From NCBI RefSeq assembly GCF_039982535.1, contig NZ_JBDWYG010000039.1:164743-228742 (forward strand): a DNA stretch of 64,000 nucleotides. The letters are read 5' to 3'. The position numbers were made by a program, and so were the translations under genes. This DNA comes from Aliiglaciecola sp. (lineage in GTDB: Bacteria > Pseudomonadota > Gammaproteobacteria > Enterobacterales > Alteromonadaceae). Below the pieces are notes generated by a model, which saw only the letters and a list, made by a program, of their open reading frames with translations, did no database searches and was not told where the DNA came from. The stretch's first letter is position 1, and each line of letters begins with the position of its first letter. Of this stretch, positions 54,196-62,693 are shown one piece after another.

Positions 54196-54223
54196 TTGAC
54201 ACAACCTTAAAGTAAGGTATGCT
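54196..54223 (+). promoter_or_regulatory. Sigma70 promoter of the cold-shock gene
   Basis: TTGACA-16 bp-TATGCT, implying a 5' UTR of about 140 nt. Confidence 0.65.
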
Positions 54224-54368
54224 TCAAGCAGCTAAGAAAACCTCGTTAAAGATCTACATGTTCGTTGTTATATCGTTGTTCTTCGTCCTGTCGTTTTTAA
54301 GTTCGGTCTCTTTTTATGCTAAACCGCCAATTTTGGCACCCAATTTAATTTTTACAGGAAGATATAAT

Positions 54369-54578
54369 ATGTCTGATAAAGTAGTAGGAACTGTTAAGTG
54401 GTTCAACGAAGATAAAGGTTTTGGTTTCATCGAGCAGCAAGGCGGCCCTGATGTTTTCGCTCATTTCCGTTCAATCGTTGGTGACGGCTTCAAGACTCTT
54501 AAAGAAGGTCAAAAAGTTGAATTCACTATCGGCCAAGGCCAAAAAGGTCCTCAAGCTGAGAACATTCAAGTTATCTAA
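54369..54578 (+). CDS. Cold-shock protein (CspA family)
   Basis: [15 protein letters not shown] (RNP1), VFAHF (RNP2); start MSDK at 54369 with ACAGGAAG RBS; ORF-track N-extension is spurious. Confidence 0.95.
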
Positions 54579-54681: not shown

Positions 54682-55590
54682 TTAACGGTTTTCTTTAACC
54701 GGTACAAATGGGCTAATTCGCTGCCACACTTCCTCTGGTTCTAAGCGTGACTTACTGCCCACGACACAAAATAACCCTGGGCAGTCTTTAGAAAAACTCT
54801 TTTGCGTATCCCAAGTTTCATAGGGGTGGGAGTCGTGTATCAACAATAGTTGAGGGTGAGTTTGAGTGCCTGCCGTGATGTGAAAGTCATCGAGGTTTCG
54901 TTTTTTCATGGCGCATAAATAATAAAGAGAATACTCCGTCCATTTAAGCATCAAGAATCGTGAAATCCGCCAATTTCTTGGATCTTTAGGGTTATGTAAC
55001 GAACAGACGGCTTTTGCCCAATCCTTTTTCCAAAGAGTGCTTAACTCCTCCGTTAACTGTTTAGCCAACTTAGTGGATAATATTGCTGGAGTGACATGCA
55101 TTCCTTTTGATGTGTCTCCCACATTTGCCGACATTTTTAACAGTCGAGCAGATGACTTCCACCATTTAGGGTGAAAACTGCGGGGTTCGTATTGCAACAG
55201 TGCTTTACCTTGGTCAATTAGCTTTTCTATGGACAAGGGTTTTAAACAAATCACATCGGCATCAAAGGTAATATAAAACTCATCTGTAAATTGGCTGTGT
55301 GCGGCTATTTTTACAATTTGTTGTTTCCGCCAGCCGCGCATGTGTTCATGTTGGCTTAATTCTGGAACCAAGTCTTCTTCCGACATAACCACTGGATTAA
55401 ACTGTGACCAGCGCTGCACTTTTTCAGTGACTATCTGTACTTCGTCTGGTGGCGTCACAATCAAAAATTTTGAGAATAAACCGGGTTCACAGAATGCATC
55501 TAAGGTTTTGAATAGAATTTCAGTTCTACCTAAGTCGTCTACATCATAACTACCCCTAACACTCAAAGGTAAAATTGCACCTATTGTCAT
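54682..55590 (-). CDS. DUF6492-like, glycosyltransferase-like protein
   Basis: GWRKQQIVKI and YITFDADV (DxD); no signal peptide. Confidence 0.6.
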   Translation of the reverse strand: MTIGAILPLSVRGSYDVDDLGRTEILFKTLDAFCEPGLFSKFLIVTPPDEVQIVTEKVQRWSQFNPVVMSEEDLVPELSQHEHMRGWRKQQIVKIAAHSQFTDEFYITFDADVICLKPLSIEKLIDQGKALLQYEPRSFHPKWWKSSARLLKMSANVGDTSKGMHVTPAILSTKLAKQLTEELSTLWKKDWAKAVCSLHNPKDPRNWRISRFLMLKWTEYSLYYLCAMKKRNLDDFHITAGTQTHPQLLLIHDSHPYETWDTQKSFSKDCPGLFCVVGSKSRLEPEEVWQRISPFVPVKENR

Positions 55591-55775: not shown

Positions 55776-56678
55776 CTACCAAAAACACCAGTGTTTACAG
55801 TCTTGTTGCTGAAGGAATAACTCGGCGTCTTTACCTTGCAATAATGCCAAGGTTGCCAGCAAGCCACTTTGAATGCATTGCGGGGCTGCCACTGTCACCG
55901 AGCGTGGTGCCTGTTGTATGGGGTAGCCAGTTTTAGGGTTTAAAACATGGCCATATCGCAAGCCATCTTTTAATAGATAGCGGTTTGCATCACCGCTTGT
56001 GGCAAGTCCACCGGTGGCAATATTTACCATGGCTAAGCCCTTAGAAAGATTACTTGGGTCTTCAATACCCACTTGCCAATAAGGATGGTTTTTGCGGGCT
56101 TGTGTTACTTGTATATCACCACCGAAGTTAACTAAAACCGATACATTTGGTGCTAATTGCTGACAAGCTTTAGCAACACAATCAACCGCATATTCCTTAC
56201 CAATACCGCCAAAGTCCAATTCAAAACCTGTGGGTAAGGTGATTGAGTTGGCGGTAAATGATACCTGTTGCCAACCAATAAAAGGCAGCAATGCGGTTAT
56301 TTGTGGGTGTGTTGGGATCCTGTCAGAACCATCAAATTTCCAAACTTTTCTTAATACCCCAGAGGTGATATCAAATAATCCATCACTAATTTGATAACAA
56401 GTATCAGCGAACGTCAGCAGTTTTGCAGTTTCCGCATCAATAGTGACAGCTTGATTGTTGCTCTGATTTATTTCGAACATCAAATTGTTGTGCTGATAAC
56501 GGCTGTATTTGTTCTCGATGCGTTTGCATTCTAGGTAGGCGACTTGTGTAAGCTCTTTTGCGAGTTCGCTATCCCCACTATCCACTAAAATCTCACAGGG
56601 GCTCGCCATCGCAGAAAAGCGACCACAAATATGGTCGCTACGCTTTTCTATGGACAAAGGCAATTCAGAGCTTTGCAT
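55776..56678 (-). CDS. apbE: FAD:protein FMN transferase (ApbE family)
   Basis: FDITSG, LDFGGIGKEYAVD, VNFGGD, LATSGD, YGHVLNPKTG, SVTV. Confidence 0.92.
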   Translation of the reverse strand: MQSSELPLSIEKRSDHICGRFSAMASPCEILVDSGDSELAKELTQVAYLECKRIENKYSRYQHNNLMFEINQSNNQAVTIDAETAKLLTFADTCYQISDGLFDITSGVLRKVWKFDGSDRIPTHPQITALLPFIGWQQVSFTANSITLPTGFELDFGGIGKEYAVDCVAKACQQLAPNVSVLVNFGGDIQVTQARKNHPYWQVGIEDPSNLSKGLAMVNIATGGLATSGDANRYLLKDGLRYGHVLNPKTGYPIQQAPRSVTVAAPQCIQSGLLATLALLQGKDAELFLQQQDCKHWCFW

Positions 56679-56702: not shown

Positions 56703-57995
56703 CTAAAAACTGTAGCTTACCTGTGCTATCACCGCTTTTAAAGAAGGATATAAATCTTCGTCTGCTAATGTCCCTGGTTGTTCGAATCCGGCATTGTCTG
56801 GGGTTTGTTGATAATATTCCAAGCGAAATGCTAACTCGTTACCGTTTTCCAATTGCATACCGTATTTTAGCCCTAGGGTAATTGCTGTCATTTTTCCTAA
56901 CCGGTAGTCAGCACTGGCATGCTCAGGAAGTGCGGTTCCTTGAGACAAAAATGGATTGTAAAACTCTGCTTCATTTTGTTGGTAATAACGAATATGCGGT
57001 TGTATGTAGCTGGTTTCCGATAGGTTATATCGAAAACGAGAGTCAATCGTATGAGAGTCTATATCCCAATCATCCGTAGCAAAACGATAGGAAAAATCTA
57101 CTACACCTTGATCAAGGGCATACTTGGTTTGCCAATACATGCTGTGTTTGGTTCGTTCTGTGGGGCGAGATTCATAGACCACATCTTGGGTTAAACCTTG
57201 CTGATCCACAACACTAAGCACTTTGTAGGGGTCATTGTGATAACCATCCGACATGGACAAACTATAGTTAAACTGCATTAACATGCGACGATTAATCACT
57301 TGGGTGACACCCAACAATAAATCTACCGTATCTTTTTGTTCACTGCCTTGTAGACGAGTGGCATCAAAGGCTTGTTGATAAGCTTCTGAACTGTCGAACT
57401 GCCCGTTATCAACTACCATGCTAGAAAGATCTACGGGGCGACCTCCCACGGGATCTATACTATCAAACGCATAGGAAATGCCCGCCGACAGGGTGGTATT
57501 TCTCTGATTAAGATCCATATCCAGTGAGCCATTACCCACAATGGATAAATAGTCGTATTCTTTGGAAGCTTGTAAACCACCACTAATTCGGTAATTTTCA
57601 CCGATAGGCTGTGTCCATTGTCCACTGGCTTGTACACGGGTATCGTGAAATGTGTCATCTAGCGGTGTTTCACCTGCTTCAACGGTATAGGTTTCATTAC
57701 CTGAAGGACGAGTAAATGTTTGCACACCAGATTGGGCAACCGCGCCTGAGGCAGAAGCTCCGGTGAGTGTATCGATCACCAGTTTGCCATTAAAATAATG
57801 TTCATCGCCGAAGTCTTTGTTGGCATTAAATACCCCTTCAACTAGTTGTACCCGATCTGTTTCACCGTAATACAAAATAGCAGTATCAAACTTCCATTCT
57901 TCGCTGTTGTCTTCAGCTTGGACAGATGTGCCTAACAATGCGCATGAAGCTGCGGCAAGAGTAGCACTGACGTTTTTAGTTTGTTTTAGTTGCAT
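56703..57995 (-). CDS. DUF3570-like outer-membrane beta-barrel protein
   Basis: Signal peptide, DTLTGAS motif, YRFATDDWDIDSHT, SADYRLG, C-terminal aromatic strand QVSYSF; overlaps the DUF4266 stop. Confidence 0.8.
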   Translation of the reverse strand: MQLKQTKNVSATLAAASCALLGTSVQAEDNSEEWKFDTAILYYGETDRVQLVEGVFNANKDFGDEHYFNGKLVIDTLTGASASGAVAQSGVQTFTRPSGNETYTVEAGETPLDDTFHDTRVQASGQWTQPIGENYRISGGLQASKEYDYLSIVGNGSLDMDLNQRNTTLSAGISYAFDSIDPVGGRPVDLSSMVVDNGQFDSSEAYQQAFDATRLQGSEQKDTVDLLLGVTQVINRRMLMQFNYSLSMSDGYHNDPYKVLSVVDQQGLTQDVVYESRPTERTKHSMYWQTKYALDQGVVDFSYRFATDDWDIDSHTIDSRFRYNLSETSYIQPHIRYYQQNEAEFYNPFLSQGTALPEHASADYRLGKMTAITLGLKYGMQLENGNELAFRLEYYQQTPDNAGFEQPGTLADEDLYPSLKAVIAQVSYSF

Positions 57996-58210
57996 CCACA
58001 ACCTCCGCCTGCAAATGAACGACCACCACTTGTGGCTTCTTTACTAAAATAAATGTGATCATCCAAGCCAATGTCTACCCCTTCAGAATCAAGGGCCATT
58101 TCATCCTTAGCGAGTAAATCACGCTCCCAGGGTTGCACACCTAAATTTGCACAGCCTGCAAGTTGCATCACGGCCATAATGGTAATAATAACTATGGTTT
58201 TTCGTTTCAT
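57986..58210 (-). CDS. DUF4266-like small lipoprotein
   Basis: Lipobox LAGC, VQPWERDLLA, HIYFSKEA, C-terminal GGGCGCN. Confidence 0.85.
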   Translation of the reverse strand: MKRKTIVIITIMAVMQLAGCANLGVQPWERDLLAKDEMALDSEGVDIGLDDHIYFSKEATSGGRSFAGGGCGCN

Positions 58211-58223
58211 TTTCTCGGCTCTC

Positions 58224-58679
58224 CTATTGTTTTAGTAGCGCGACGATTTCTTGTTCATAAGATGCGGATTTATCTAAATGAAATCCTTTGTGAGCGACCA
58301 CAAGTTCACCTTGTTTGTTGATCAAGTAACTGGTCGGCATACCTGGAATTTTGTATTGGCTGGCTAAACTGCCTTGGGGATCGTAGGCAATATTGAATTG
58401 CGCAGGGTATTTGCGTAAGAATTTTTGGGCTAATTTGGCATCGGTATCCAAATTTACAGCCAACACCACCAATCCCTCAGAGGCGTATTTATTGGTAATT
58501 TCATTCATCCAAGGAAAGGACTTTCGGCAGGGTTTACACCAGGAGGCCCAGAAATCTAAATATACTACTTTGCCTTTGTAATCACTTAACTGAATGTCTT
58601 GCAATCGAAAGTCAGGCGCAGGTAAAGCACTAGATGGTAAGTGCACTAGTAACAGTAGGGTTAACAGTAAAAGACGCAT
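58224..58679 (-). CDS. TlpA family thiol-disulfide oxidoreductase, exported
   Basis: Signal peptide, LDFWASWCKPC, cis-Pro GMPTSY. Confidence 0.92.
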   Translation of the reverse strand: MRLLLLTLLLLVHLPSSALPAPDFRLQDIQLSDYKGKVVYLDFWASWCKPCRKSFPWMNEITNKYASEGLVVLAVNLDTDAKLAQKFLRKYPAQFNIAYDPQGSLASQYKIPGMPTSYLINKQGELVVAHKGFHLDKSASYEQEIVALLKQ

Positions 58680-58797: not shown

Positions 58798-59511
58798 TTA
58801 AAATTCGTACTCAAGAACAAAGCGCAAAGTATGATCTTTATTGTCGCCATTCAAGCCAGAGATAAAACCTAATTCCCATTTTAATTGTTTTTGGCCTTGG
58901 TAACGTTGAATCCCCATAAATGCTGGACCAATTCCGACGAACTTTTCTCCCGTGTAGATTTCCACTGAAGGTTGTAACCATGGGTGCCAACGATATCTGT
59001 ATTTGAGTCTGAATTGGGGAATAACCTCGCTTTCAGTGTCAATGTCTCTATCGCTTCCCCAGGTATAAGTCAGTAAAAAGTTAGTGGTTAAACTGGTTTG
59101 CCCAAATTCTTTTTCAATCAAGATGCCAGATGTGGCTTCCCAAAGATCTTTGCTATGGGCTTTTTCAACTTCAAACAACGCGCCCCAATCAGCCCAATAT
59201 TGCCCTTGTTCTGTGAGCATCCAGCGAGCCTCGACTTCATAGGAAGCTAAACCAAAATCATCGTTTTCATCTCTGGCGCCCACTAAATAAAACTCTAACA
59301 TCAAATGCTCTGAAACTGCTTTTCCAAAAGCAAAACGTTGGGTCAGCAGATTACCATCATCATTTTGGCGAGAAGCAAATCGCCATTCCACTTCCCGTTC
59401 ATTGGGTAAAACATAGGGGTGGTAGACTTTATCTACTGAGCCTTCATCGGCGAAGGCTACCGGGCAGAGCATTATGTTTACGAGTAAACTTAAGAAACTG
59501 AAAAACCTCAT
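58798..59511 (-). CDS. Uncharacterised exported protein, predicted small beta-barrel
   Basis: Signal peptide, DKVYHPYV, alternating amphipathic strands, C-terminal LEYEF. Confidence 0.7.
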   Translation of the reverse strand: MRFFSFLSLLVNIMLCPVAFADEGSVDKVYHPYVLPNEREVEWRFASRQNDDGNLLTQRFAFGKAVSEHLMLEFYLVGARDENDDFGLASYEVEARWMLTEQGQYWADWGALFEVEKAHSKDLWEATSGILIEKEFGQTSLTTNFLLTYTWGSDRDIDTESEVIPQFRLKYRYRWHPWLQPSVEIYTGEKFVGIGPAFMGIQRYQGQKQLKWELGFISGLNGDNKDHTLRFVLEYEF

Positions 59512-60266
59512 AGGTTTGGCTCCTTATTTACTTTTTTAGTTGAGTTGCTGAAACGCCTTAGCAAAACAGGCAGTATTAACGCGACTAAGTAGATCAAAAT
59601 ATATAATCCTGTGGGAGATGACTCATAACCTATTAATGTGGCAAGAAACTGACCTATTTCATTTTCATCTGAAATGAATTGTTTGCTACTCCAAATTTGT
59701 TGTGAAGTGACTAAATCTGTTTGTTGCAGCAGGTAGGCAATGTGGGAAAACTGACCCACAACAAAGACTAAAAACAGATAGCGCGCTACCTTCACTTTTT
59801 GTAGCGGTTTTAATAGCAATACCAGCAATGTTGCAATGCTGGTACAGATACCAACCCCTAAAATTAACCCTAAAAATAGCGAATGACTCTGCTCATTCAC
59901 ACGCCAGAAACTGACATAAAACAGCAGTAAGTTACTGGCATTAAGAATAATGATACAAGTGACAAACACAGTGGCTAAAAGCCGCCCTGTGAAATTGTAC
60001 CTGAGTTGATGATTCACGAAAAAGGCACCGGCAATAAGGTAACCGATGATCAGCAACAGGATTTTAAGAAACTCAAACCCCAAACCATCGGCGAATTGGG
60101 AAATATAACCGATGTTATTGAACACCAGTAAACAAACAATCGTTCCGCAGCCAATACCCAGCGGTAACCAGTGTCGCCAATTGGGTATCAACACTATTAA
60201 AATGGCTATGGCCCAAAATATCGGCAAAGCATCTTTTAGGAACAGTACCACTGTACTACTTAGCAT
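59508..60266 (-). CDS. FTR1/FtrC-like permease (degenerate)
   Basis: About seven TMs, GLILGVGIC, GQFLATLIGYESSP; follows the cupredoxin; canonical RExxE motifs absent; start at MLSSTVV. Confidence 0.68.
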   Translation of the reverse strand: MLSSTVVLFLKDALPIFWAIAILIVLIPNWRHWLPLGIGCGTIVCLLVFNNIGYISQFADGLGFEFLKILLLIIGYLIAGAFFVNHQLRYNFTGRLLATVFVTCIIILNASNLLLFYVSFWRVNEQSHSLFLGLILGVGICTSIATLLVLLLKPLQKVKVARYLFLVFVVGQFSHIAYLLQQTDLVTSQQIWSSKQFISDENEIGQFLATLIGYESSPTGLYILIYLVALILPVLLRRFSNSTKKVNKEPNL

Positions 60267-60600
60267 TTTGACGCTCCTCAACGGGTACCACGTTAACGAA
60301 GCCAATGGCTGTATTTGGATGATACTCGCCAAAATAACGATACCTTCCTGCATCTAAAGGACCTACATAGATACTCGACCGGCTTTTGGCAAATACGACT
60401 TTTTCTCTATTGAGGTCAAAACTATCAATTTCTTCAGGGGTGTCATCCAGATTGATAAAGGTGATTTTTACTTTTTTGTGCTGGGGAATATCAACTTCTG
60501 GTGGGTAAAACAAATGGTTCCGAATGGTGATAGTAATTTCGTCGATAGCACAGGCTTTAAATGACAGGGCAAGTAACATTAGCATCATGAATTTTTGCAT
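60256..60600 (-). CDS. FtrB/EfeO-like cupredoxin
   Basis: Signal peptide; FYPPEVDIP, EEIDSFDLNREK, YFGEYH; no Cys in the mature C-terminal loop; start at MQKFM. Confidence 0.82.
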   Translation of the reverse strand: MQKFMMLMLLALSFKACAIDEITITIRNHLFYPPEVDIPQHKKVKITFINLDDTPEEIDSFDLNREKVVFAKSRSSIYVGPLDAGRYRYFGEYHPNTAIGFVNVVPVEERQNAK

Positions 60601-60632
60601 GATGTTTTCAAGTACTTTTCTGCGCACGTTAC

Positions 60633-61931
60633 TCATGCCGATTTAAGCTCAACAAGCACACTCAAACCACCTAAGTCTGATTTACCTAGTGTGAGTTTGC
60701 CATCGTGCATAGCGACAATTTGCTCGACTATGGATAGACCCAATCCACTGCCTTCAATTTTACTCTTTTGATGACTTTGACCTCGATAAAAGCGCACTGT
60801 GGATTTATGTTGTTCGTGCTCTGGAATTCCTGGGCCAGAATCATCAACGCGAAGGCGTAAACATCCGTCATCAAGGGTTAAGTTTATGCGTATATCGCTG
60901 TTCTCTGGTGTGTATTTATTGGCATTGCTAATGAGGTTTTGTAGCAAGGTATATAGGGCAAATTCATTGCCTTTAAATTCACAGGACTCACCATTGAGTT
61001 CGATGTTTTGATTCTTTTTATCAATATTCACATAGCTATCGGAAATAACTTTTTGGGCTATTTTGTAGGGGTCACAAATATCAAAGTTAGCTGAGATAAT
61101 TTCAGGGTTAGTACGACTGAGTAGCAAAATTTGATTAACCACGTGGATCATTCTATCTGTGTCTTGTTGTAGCTGTTGAATCTCCTCGTATTCGCAGCCT
61201 TGGCTCTGCTGTAAATTATGCAAATTTATTTTCAGGACACTCAGGGGAGTTCTTAGTTCATGGGCGGCATGGCTGGCGAATTGTTTTTCCCGCTCGAAGG
61301 CCGAATCCAACCGGTTCAACAAGCTATTCAGAGTACTCACCGTGGGCAACAACTCCTCGGGGGTTCGTGACAAAGCAATAGCAGAAAAATCATTTTCTCG
61401 GCGCGTAGACAATTGACTGGTGAGTTCCCTAAGGGGAGCTAAACCGTAGGTAACTAGCAGGAATATGGCTAAGGCTAAAACGGGAATGGCGAGAAAAAAT
61501 GGTGTCATTGCCGATATCATCATTTCTTCGGTTAGCTCAAATCTGGTTTTTAGTGGTTGAGCGACAAAAACCCAAACAGAGGTTTGTTGATTGAAGCTGG
61601 CATAAACCCGCCACCGTTGAGCGTTAAAGTTCTGGTCAGAATACCCTACTTCGAAGGGAGCGATGGCAGTTAAAGGCACATTGCTGGTGCGTAAAACCAA
61701 ATCTTCATCAGACCAACTTTGAATGGCTAAATCTTCATTTGAAGCGGCAATAGTCTCGCTAATTTGCGTGGGTAAGTTAGTCATGCTTTGGGCGAGAGTT
61801 TTCAATTCAGCATCGAATAACACCGAAGACATCTGCATTCCTGAACGATACCCTTGTAGTGCCGCAATAAAACTAATCAGCGCAATAGCACTGATAAGCA
61901 GTAAGGTCAGGTATTTACGAATTGAATCCAT
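60633..61931 (-). CDS. QseC/PmrB-like sensor histidine kinase
   Basis: Two TMs, LFDAEL periplasmic motif, HAMP, FASHAAHELRTPL, NANKY, GSGLGLSI. Confidence 0.92.
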   Translation of the reverse strand: MDSIRKYLTLLLISAIALISFIAALQGYRSGMQMSSVLFDAELKTLAQSMTNLPTQISETIAASNEDLAIQSWSDEDLVLRTSNVPLTAIAPFEVGYSDQNFNAQRWRVYASFNQQTSVWVFVAQPLKTRFELTEEMMISAMTPFFLAIPVLALAIFLLVTYGLAPLRELTSQLSTRRENDFSAIALSRTPEELLPTVSTLNSLLNRLDSAFEREKQFASHAAHELRTPLSVLKINLHNLQQSQGCEYEEIQQLQQDTDRMIHVVNQILLLSRTNPEIISANFDICDPYKIAQKVISDSYVNIDKKNQNIELNGESCEFKGNEFALYTLLQNLISNANKYTPENSDIRINLTLDDGCLRLRVDDSGPGIPEHEQHKSTVRFYRGQSHQKSKIEGSGLGLSIVEQIVAMHDGKLTLGKSDLGGLSVLVELKSA

Positions 61932-62603
61932 TTATCCAGGGTAAGCTCGCTGATTAATGCTATAGCCTACACCACGAACCGTTTTAATAAACTCGTTAGG
62001 TAATTTTTTACGTAAATTATGAATATGAACTTCAATTGTATTGCTTGCCACTTCATCGCCCCATTCGTAAAGCTTAGATTCCAATTGTTGTTTAGATTGA
62101 ATGCGCCCAAGGTTTTCCATTAATGACTTCAGCAGGGTGAACTCACGACGAGAAGTTTCTACCGGCTGATCATTTATAATCAGTAAGTGATGAGTAATAT
62201 CGAGACTCACGGGACCGCAGGATACTAGGGATTGTTGCGAAGTACCTAAGCGTCTTTCCATTACCCGTAAGCGGGCTAGCAACTCTGACATTTCAAATGG
62301 TTTAGGTAAATAATCATCAGCGCCTTTATCTAAACCTTGTATTTTATCGGAGGTTGAGTCCCGTGCGGTTAATATTAATGTTGGTATGTTGTTTTTCTGC
62401 TTGCGGATTTTATCGAGTAAGGTTAATCCGTCCATATCGGGCAACCCAAGGTCAAGGATCATTAAATTACAGTCATCTGAGGCCAGTGCAGCTATGGCAT
62501 CTTTGCCGTTAAAAACACAATTAACCGCATAACCCTGCTTGCGCAATGATTTGCTTAAGGCTTCAGATAAAGCGAGATCGTCCTCGACTAATAAAATACG
62601 CAT
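61932..62603 (-). CDS. QseB/PmrA-like response regulator
   Basis: MRILLVEDD, LDLGLPDMDG, SNTIEVHIHNLRKKL, IKTVRGVGY; start at 62603. Confidence 0.93.
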   Translation of the reverse strand: MRILLVEDDLALSEALSKSLRKQGYAVNCVFNGKDAIAALASDDCNLMILDLGLPDMDGLTLLDKIRKQKNNIPTLILTARDSTSDKIQGLDKGADDYLPKPFEMSELLARLRVMERRLGTSQQSLVSCGPVSLDITHHLLIINDQPVETSRREFTLLKSLMENLGRIQSKQQLESKLYEWGDEVASNTIEVHIHNLRKKLPNEFIKTVRGVGYSINQRAYPG

Positions 62604-62693
62604 AATAGTGGGTTCTTTTTCGTTTGCAGCAATGGCGTAGCATATTGGCAATAGTTTAATTGAATGACAATTTGTATTGTGATCGTCCCTATC

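Follow-up and report, generated by a model that had tools for sequence, protein, structure and literature searches.

The window analysed in this study, the whole stretch of 64,000 nucleotides (64 kb) taken from Aliiglaciecola sp. (contig NZ_JBDWYG010000039.1), carries on its minus strand four adjacent genes in the order TlpA-DUF4266-DUF3570-ApbE. They encode a secreted thioredoxin-like protein, a small lipoprotein, a protein of the DUF3570 family and the enzyme ApbE, which transfers flavin mononucleotide (FMN) from flavin adenine dinucleotide (FAD) to proteins. An earlier interpretation made from the letters alone, called here the sequence-only reading, had noticed a flavinylation motif in the DUF3570 protein and proposed that this protein is a heme-free, flavin-based trans-outer-membrane redox protein. 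The operon is composed of the following genes and features:

58224..58679, minus strand: secreted TlpA/ResA-like thioredoxin with a WCKPC active site (Pfam AhpC-TSA, Redoxin and Thioredoxin_8; NCBIfam ResA and TlpA)
57986..58210, minus strand: DUF4266 lipoprotein of 74 residues (Pfam PF14086, E 2.3e-21), with the lipobox LAGC followed by A-N and the CXC tail GGGCGCN
56703..58001, minus strand: DUF3570 gene, 432 residues counted from TTG; predicted ApbE substrate and predicted beta-barrel of the outer membrane, with about 18 strands
57915..58001, minus strand: predicted Sec signal peptide of DUF3570, cleavage after V-Q-A29
57753..57773, minus strand: canonical ApbE flavinylation motif D77-T-L-T-G-A-S83, Ser83 being the predicted FMN acceptor
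57699..57722, minus strand: second family-conserved site, Q94-T-F-T-R-P-S100-G101, with a near-invariant S100 that stands here in the non-canonical T-R-P-S
55776..56678, minus strand: apbE (FAD:protein FMN transferase), 300 residues, no signal peptide (Pfam ApbE, E 8e-62)

A conserved flavinylation motif in a four-gene operon

Residue numbers refer to the 432-residue open reading frame (ORF) counted from TTG, as in the sequence-only reading. The heptapeptide DTLTGAS occupies residues 77-83 of this ORF and maps exactly to 57753..57773, and it is the single match to D..[ST]GA[ST] across the six reading frames of the window, so the position given for the motif was exact. Its host is a full-length member of the family: Pfam DUF3570 (PF12094) is matched with E 7.5e-170 at 565.7 bits (cut-off 25), residues 14-432 spanning profile positions 3-427 of 427. 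The motif had also been described as lying near the N-terminus and directly upstream of apbE; the former is roughly right, the acceptor site being about 54 residues into the mature protein, and apbE is indeed the next gene downstream. In shuffled sequences of the protein's own composition the motif is present in 0.5% of cases, and the probability of its chance origin is low. An ATG at 57995 is a likelier start than the TTG, because a GGAGG lies 7 nucleotides upstream of it and the database proteins are likewise 430 residues long; the acceptor would then be Ser81. The predicted signal peptide, as read from the sequence, consists of a basic N-region and the hydrophobic stretch ATLAAASCALLG, followed by VQA/ED at the cleavage site. 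Lipidation of DUF3570 at Cys20 of this signal peptide was considered and rejected, the cysteine being in the middle of the hydrophobic region, outside any lipobox context and absent from distant homologues. A read-through fusion of DUF3570 and ApbE, which share a frame and are one stop codon apart, was also rejected, as the barrel needs its C-terminal Phe and as the two genes overlap in different frames in other phyla.

The motif was followed through 120 close homologues (at least 64% identity), 135 full-length representatives at 34-53% identity and a wider set of 250 homologues that spans 34-100% identity. Exactly one D.L[TS]GAS is present in 119/120 of the close homologues. Among the 135 representatives, G81 is retained in every sequence, [ST]83 in 134, D77 in 133, [TS]80 in 130 and A82 in 116. 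The canonical motif is found in 219 members of the wider set and the acceptor Ser/Thr is kept in 249, most of the non-canonical motifs differing only by a change of the Ala to Pro, Gly or Ser. Conservation among homologues, on which the sequence-only reading had staked its proposal, is therefore clear.

Just after the motif, residues 84-122 form the most conserved stretch of the family and hold a second site, Q-T-F-[TS]-x-[PA]-S100-G. Ser or Thr occupies position 100 in 245/250 homologues, and a canonical [ST]GA[ST] (e.g., QTFTGASG) is found there in 35 of the 250, about 14%. In such two-site homologues, including two from more distant lineages, TGAS stands at exactly the positions of S83 and S100, from which we infer that S100 is the counterpart of the second site in the DUF3570 protein of Chlorobium luteolum, discussed below; a profile search seeded with the two-site homologues returned no Chlorobi names. 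In the window protein, TGAS at residues 80-83 is the only canonical one of the two, and since the second site reads QTFTRPSG the protein is, by the known ApbE consensus, a single-site variant. Either most DUF3570 members bear one flavin, or ApbE accepts T-x-P-S in DUF3570.

The operon is conserved too: a search for related loci yielded a best set of 80, nearly all from Gammaproteobacteria and mostly from Alteromonadales and Cellvibrionales (among them Aliiglaciecola sp. SL4, at 99% identity), in which the order TlpA-DUF4266-DUF3570-ApbE recurs with DUF4266 in 80/80 loci, ApbE in 76/80 and TlpA in 75/80. Loci of more distant homologues, including one labelled Zixibacteria, contain the complete set of four genes as well; in one such locus DsbD_N and Redoxin genes stand alongside. 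The C-terminal GGGCGCN of DUF4266 is present in 80/80 loci and WCxPC in 75/75 of the TlpA-like orthologues. DUF4266 and DUF3570 overlap by 10 nucleotides and are probably translationally coupled; since the tail codons (57986..58010, minus strand) hold the GGAGG Shine-Dalgarno sequence and the ATG of DUF3570, the GGGCGCN tail is, on sequence grounds, under a double constraint. No CXXCH motif was found in any protein of the cluster, which thus has no multiheme cytochrome of the MtrAB type and deserves the term "heme-free" given to its DUF3570 protein, and none of the cluster proteins besides DUF3570 contains a flavinylation motif. A promoter and terminator scan gave fewer promoter-like sites than shuffled sequence. 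Two of the loci, L021 ("Flavobacterium sp. W21_SRS_FM6") and L051 ("Phenylobacterium sp.", a metagenome-assembled genome), have operons resembling those of Alteromonadaceae, at 66% and 58% identity to the Aliiglaciecola protein, which could reflect contamination, mis-binning or recent transfer.

Flavinylation of DUF3570 by ApbE has been in print since 2021. A search for substrates of "orphan" apbE genes showed that DUF3570 proteins associated with ApbE conserve [S/T]GA[S/T] (Meheust et al., 2021, eLife, PMC8238504). Co-expression of the C. luteolum DUF3570 protein (ABB24424.1) with its cognate ApbE gave a UV-fluorescent band, which was lost only once the serines of both motifs had been changed to alanine (PMC8238504). 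The same study described the cluster of ApbE, DUF3570, DUF4266 and a thioredoxin-like protein, of which it counted 227 adjacent to DsbD and 316 with no DsbD close by, and called its function uncertain, possibly iron assimilation (PMC8238504). The C. luteolum protein shares with the window protein PF12094, the [S/T]GA[S/T] acceptor motif and the clustering with ApbE, DUF4266 (CXC) and a thioredoxin-like protein; it differs in having two acceptor serines, whereas a single canonical site is found in the window protein and in its relatives from Alteromonadales, the second Ser standing in T-R-P-S. The window cluster matches the published type without DsbD nearby, and the window holds a typical member of that system. 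Flavinylation has thus been demonstrated for the homologue alone and is predicted for the window protein, for which the proposal that ApbE attaches FMN to Ser83 is well supported by the motif, its conservation, the adjacent apbE and the published case. The sequence-only reading had mentioned neither this precedent nor the DUF4266 CXC lipoprotein and TlpA-like thioredoxin of the same operon, nor the fact that ApbE has no export signal. The present analysis adds to the published work the conservation of the acceptor, the counts for the four-gene operon, the barrel model of about 18 strands with conservation on its outer side, the single-site clade, the signal-less ApbE, and the FTR1-like and cupredoxin neighbours.

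Barrel model and possible place of flavinylation

AlphaFold2 run with 50 close sequences gave a barrel with a predicted local distance difference test score (pLDDT) of 82.9, in which the loop after the motif was poorly defined; with 140 more diverse sequences the pLDDT rose to 90.8, with a predicted template modelling score of 0.85, and this loop was then modelled with confidence (about 90). About 18 antiparallel strands make up the model, joined in alternation by short turns of 2-5 residues and long loops of 29, 38, 28 and 19 residues, and residues 1-29, the predicted signal peptide, form a helix detached from the barrel with pLDDT below 50. In the loop after the motif, L2, which is the most conserved loop of the family, the chain makes a small hairpin with S100-G at its tip. 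A Foldseek search of the PDB returned as its top 50 matches only outer-membrane barrels (FadL, AlgE, OmpG, TonB-dependent receptors, BamA), at template modelling (TM) scores of only about 0.4, which indicates a generic barrel resemblance. MtrB ranked third in the first Foldseek search (TM about 0.43) and is not among the 50 matches listed for the better model. A specific kinship with MtrB, FadL or AlgE was rejected at such TM-scores, and a sequence search of the PDB with the DUF3570 profile gave no match. The C-terminus is Y-x-F in 74/80 loci, as counted from the 12 commonest endings, the window protein ending in YSF. The model, the Foldseek matches, the signal peptide and this C-terminal aromatic beta-signal all support DUF3570 being an outer-membrane beta-barrel, as the sequence-only reading had supposed. 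In published work the sole hint on localisation is that the C. luteolum protein was found in the insoluble pellet in E. coli (PMC8238504). That study does not contain the word "barrel" and uses "outer membrane" only for TonB receptors; neither it nor a 2025 review of ApbE (PMC12052999) discusses DUF3570 as an outer-membrane barrel, and no account of flavinylated proteins as barrels or outer-membrane proteins came out of the literature searches.

In the AlphaFold2 model strand 3 has the motif at its C-terminal end, and by residue alternation D77 and S83 share the polar face of this strand with N71 and K73 (N69 and K71 in the 430-residue numbering). The termini and short turns face the periplasm in all outer-membrane proteins of this type known so far; strand parity would accordingly put the motif at the end of strand 3 nearer the cell surface, some 16 residues above the periplasmic turn and on the polar side that faces the lumen. 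The surface loops are usually the most variable part of an outer-membrane protein. In DUF3570 this pattern is inverted, the periplasmic turns being the most variable: of the 57 positions of the mature protein that are conserved in at least 90% of the 250 sequences, 53 belong to the long loops or to the central and outer strand segments, and four to the periplasmic half or turns. The conserved outer loops may fold over or into the barrel, as a cap or plug around a buried flavin pocket.

The operon ApbE raises the question of where such a protein would be flavinylated. It starts MQSSELPLSIEKRSDHICGRFSAMASPCE and has no hydrophobic leader, and a longer N-terminus is impossible because the in-frame stop codon of DUF3570 is 24 nucleotides upstream. 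The protein matches FMN transferases in the PDB, its residues 38-41 pairing with residues 36-42 of the solved signal-less chains. The absence of a signal is general: ApbE is signal-less in 79/79 loci (76 gammaproteobacterial and three of more distant homologues, one labelled Zixibacteria), with no signal peptide or lipobox and with 20-40 hydrophilic residues ahead of the conserved AMASPCE. The signal peptide or lipobox characteristic of ApbE in extracytosolic flavinylation systems is therefore missing here. So far, cytosolic ApbEs have been tied only to cytosolic targets, e.g., the fumarate reductase of Klebsiella (PMC12052999). A motif of only seven residues can be recognised by ApbE, which also accepts a seven-residue tag (PMC12052999). 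The 2021 study states that its DUF2271 constructs had no signal peptides; for the DUF3570 pair, co-expressed in E. coli, it followed "a similar cloning strategy" (PMC8238504), so that the published flavinylation probably happened in the cytoplasm, on a protein that then aggregated. As a seven-residue tag suffices for ApbE and the published reaction was probably cytoplasmic, flavinylation of the unfolded DUF3570 precursor ahead of export is conceivable. The pairing of a cytoplasmic ApbE with a Sec-exported outer-membrane substrate is discussed neither in the 2021 study (PMC8238504) nor in the 2025 review (PMC12052999); a dedicated signal-less ApbE with an exported substrate bears on where and when flavinylation happens, and on the supply of FAD to extracytosolic flavinylation.

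Proposed electron transfer and competing explanations

The explanation that we consider the best is that DUF3570 is a flavinylated outer-membrane protein within a thiol-to-flavin relay, to which we assign a probability of about 0.7. The operon ApbE would transfer the FMN part of FAD to Ser83 through a phosphoester bond, and DUF3570 would be exported by Sec and become an outer-membrane barrel, the conserved outer loops covering a buried flavin. Where the flavin sits, how the relay is ordered, which way electrons flow and what accepts them are inferred: the route would run from a cytoplasmic reductant to DsbD, encoded elsewhere, then to the TlpA-like protein, the CXC tail of DUF4266 and the FMN on DUF3570, from which electrons would pass to an acceptor at or near the cell surface. 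This acceptor is perhaps Fe(III), which is proposed because a cupredoxin and FTR1-like module adjoins the operon.

Several aspects of the relay have counterparts in known systems. NqrC, NqrB, RnfG, RnfD and PplA, the ApbE substrates with FMN_bind domains, have in common with DUF3570 the enzyme, the Dxx[S/T]GA[S/T] motif, the phosphoester FMN and an extracytosolic role in electron transfer. The fold of DUF3570 is unrelated to theirs, being a beta-barrel in which Pfam matched DUF3570 only and no FMN_bind domain; its predicted place is the outer membrane and not the inner membrane or periplasm, and its partner ApbE is signal-less. The secreted WCxPC protein, which scores best against ResA and TlpA, is reminiscent of the thiol-reducing relays of DsbD with TlpA, ResA or CcmG, but a CXC lipoprotein and a flavin would be the end point of the relay here, in place of a substrate of cytochrome maturation or repair. 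With the MtrCAB-type porin-cytochrome complexes (MtrB, PDB 6R2Q) the likeness is that of a large outer-membrane barrel housing a would-be redox relay, while the DUF3570 cluster is heme-free and would have its redox centre covalently on the barrel itself, which has about 18 strands. The barrel of MtrB has 26.

That electrons cross the outer membrane by way of a flavin is a plausible hypothesis, in keeping with the predicted topology and with the pattern of conservation. In its most specific form, cytoplasmic ApbE would flavinylate the unfolded precursor before Sec export; after assembly by the beta-barrel assembly machinery (BAM) the FMN would be held within the outer barrel half and reached from the periplasm by the GGGCGCN tail, and DUF3570 with DUF4266 would form a heme-free outer-membrane electron conduit, through which electrons from DsbD and TlpA would exit via the flavin, e.g., to reduce Fe(III) for FTR1-like uptake. 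This complete scheme is a tentative one and, taken with all its parts, doubtful; if the flavin is in the cell-surface half of the barrel, DUF3570 would be the flavin counterpart of the porin-cytochrome conduits. A number of observations weigh against the relay or parts of it. The window contains no DsbD gene. The motif was assigned to the outer end and to the lumen side on the basis of strand parity, the alternation of residues and the topology usual for outer-membrane proteins, and a flavin in the outer half of the barrel would be too far from the periplasm for a single tunnelling step unless a partner reaches in. If flavinylation must be periplasmic, the signal-less cognate ApbE cannot act. 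On the side of iron, the REXXE iron-binding motifs of the FTR1-like protein have degenerated to KDALP and NASNL, and the iron module is linked to the operon in only about 30% of loci.

The most serious competitor to the relay keeps the flavin but makes it a catalytic cofactor, DUF3570-FMN being an envelope thiol oxidase or reductase that moves no electrons across the outer membrane; its target might, for example, be the CXC tail of DUF4266 or the TlpA-like protein, oxidised again or reduced with O2, quinones or a small molecule as the partner. Flavoprotein disulfide reductases routinely use flavin-dithiol chemistry, DUF3570 is invariably encoded together with the two thiol proteins, and the core operon encodes no extracellular partner. 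In addition, flavinylated FMN-binding proteins can react with O2 (PMC12052999). We nevertheless regard this possibility as unlikely, since it leaves unexplained both the 18-strand outer-membrane barrel, where a soluble periplasmic domain would suffice, and the clustering of conserved residues towards the cell surface.

Two further explanations question the flavin itself. The motif might not be flavinylated in vivo by the cytoplasmic ApbE of the operon and might be served by the periplasmic ApbE associated with Na+-NQR, or remain an unmodified structural site, for which the lack of a signal in all 79 ApbE proteins and the published restriction of cytosolic ApbEs to cytosolic targets (PMC12052999) can be adduced. 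This is improbable in view of the association of apbE with DUF3570 in 76/80 loci and in the loci of more distant homologues, of DUF3570 being the sole protein of the cluster with the motif, and of the published experiment, in which the cognate ApbE was used in E. coli and probably acted in the cytoplasm; a structural role would moreover not require the exact ApbE consensus. Finally, a short motif such as Dxx[S/T]GA[S/T] could be a functionless chance match, and one match per 128,000 six-frame positions is in itself unremarkable. This idea is effectively refuted by the conservation of the motif over the 250 homologues down to 34% identity, and it also has against it the apbE adjoining in almost every genome, the experimental flavinylation of a family member (PMC8238504) and the 0.5% frequency among shuffles.

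Genes around the operon

Directly upstream of the operon, on the same strand, a two-component system is followed in order by a cupredoxin-domain protein, a membrane protein and a secreted protein:

60633..62651, minus strand: PmrAB/QseBC-like two-component system, comprising a histidine kinase (60633..61931) and a response regulator (61932..62651), by Pfam and NCBIfam
60256..60636, minus strand: Cupredoxin_1 protein (E 7.8e-22)
59508..60269, minus strand: divergent FTR1-like membrane protein of 253 residues, which aligns to the genuine FTR1 protein P0394
58798..59511, minus strand: secreted protein of 237 residues ending in EYEF, no family match

Neither the 237-residue nor the 253-residue protein has a match in Pfam and NCBIfam, the permease remaining below every Pfam threshold. 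The C-terminal half of the latter aligns to P0394 with 33% identity (E 1e-5 database-wide and 4e-12 pairwise), P0394 itself scoring FTR1 at 7.5e-34. Conserved Cys, His or Met copper ligands are lacking from the Cupredoxin_1 protein, whose conserved residues are mostly acidic. Many Glu, Arg and Trp residues are conserved in the 237-residue protein, which is probably a small outer-membrane protein or barrel. The succession of a Cupredoxin_1 protein and an FTR1-like permease is the likeness of this module to the FtrABCD and P19-FTR1 iron uptake systems, FtrB and FtrC being found in the same cupredoxin-permease order. It differs from them in being without P19, FtrA and a polyferredoxin, in its degenerate REXXE motifs and in a cupredoxin devoid of conserved ligands. 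Thioredoxin-like genes have been noted in the P19/FTR1 clusters of Gram-negative bacteria (PMC8238504).

The module of cupredoxin, FTR1-like and 237-residue proteins is found near the flavin operon in 24-26/80 loci, in varying positions and orientations, and a pair of response regulator and histidine kinase stands beside the operon in 45-46/80. This neighbourhood fits the published suggestion of a role in iron assimilation (PMC8238504), a link that is circumstantial, and the recurrence of the two-component system and of the cupredoxin/FTR1-like module offers iron acquisition as a physiological hypothesis.

The window has no NQR genes, and the rest of it is occupied by housekeeping genes, such as those for type II secretion, purine synthesis and Tex. 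About 185 nucleotides past apbE, on the same strand, lies a DUF6492 gene (54682..55590, minus strand, E 3e-101), which is probably unrelated to the flavin operon, as it is found beside it in only 3/80 loci, all from Aliiglaciecola. In the cold-shock-domain gene at 54219..54578 (plus strand) the longest ORF has an N-terminal extension of about 50 residues that looks hydrophobic; as the cold-shock domain covers residues 56-118, an internal ATG is probably the real start of this gene.

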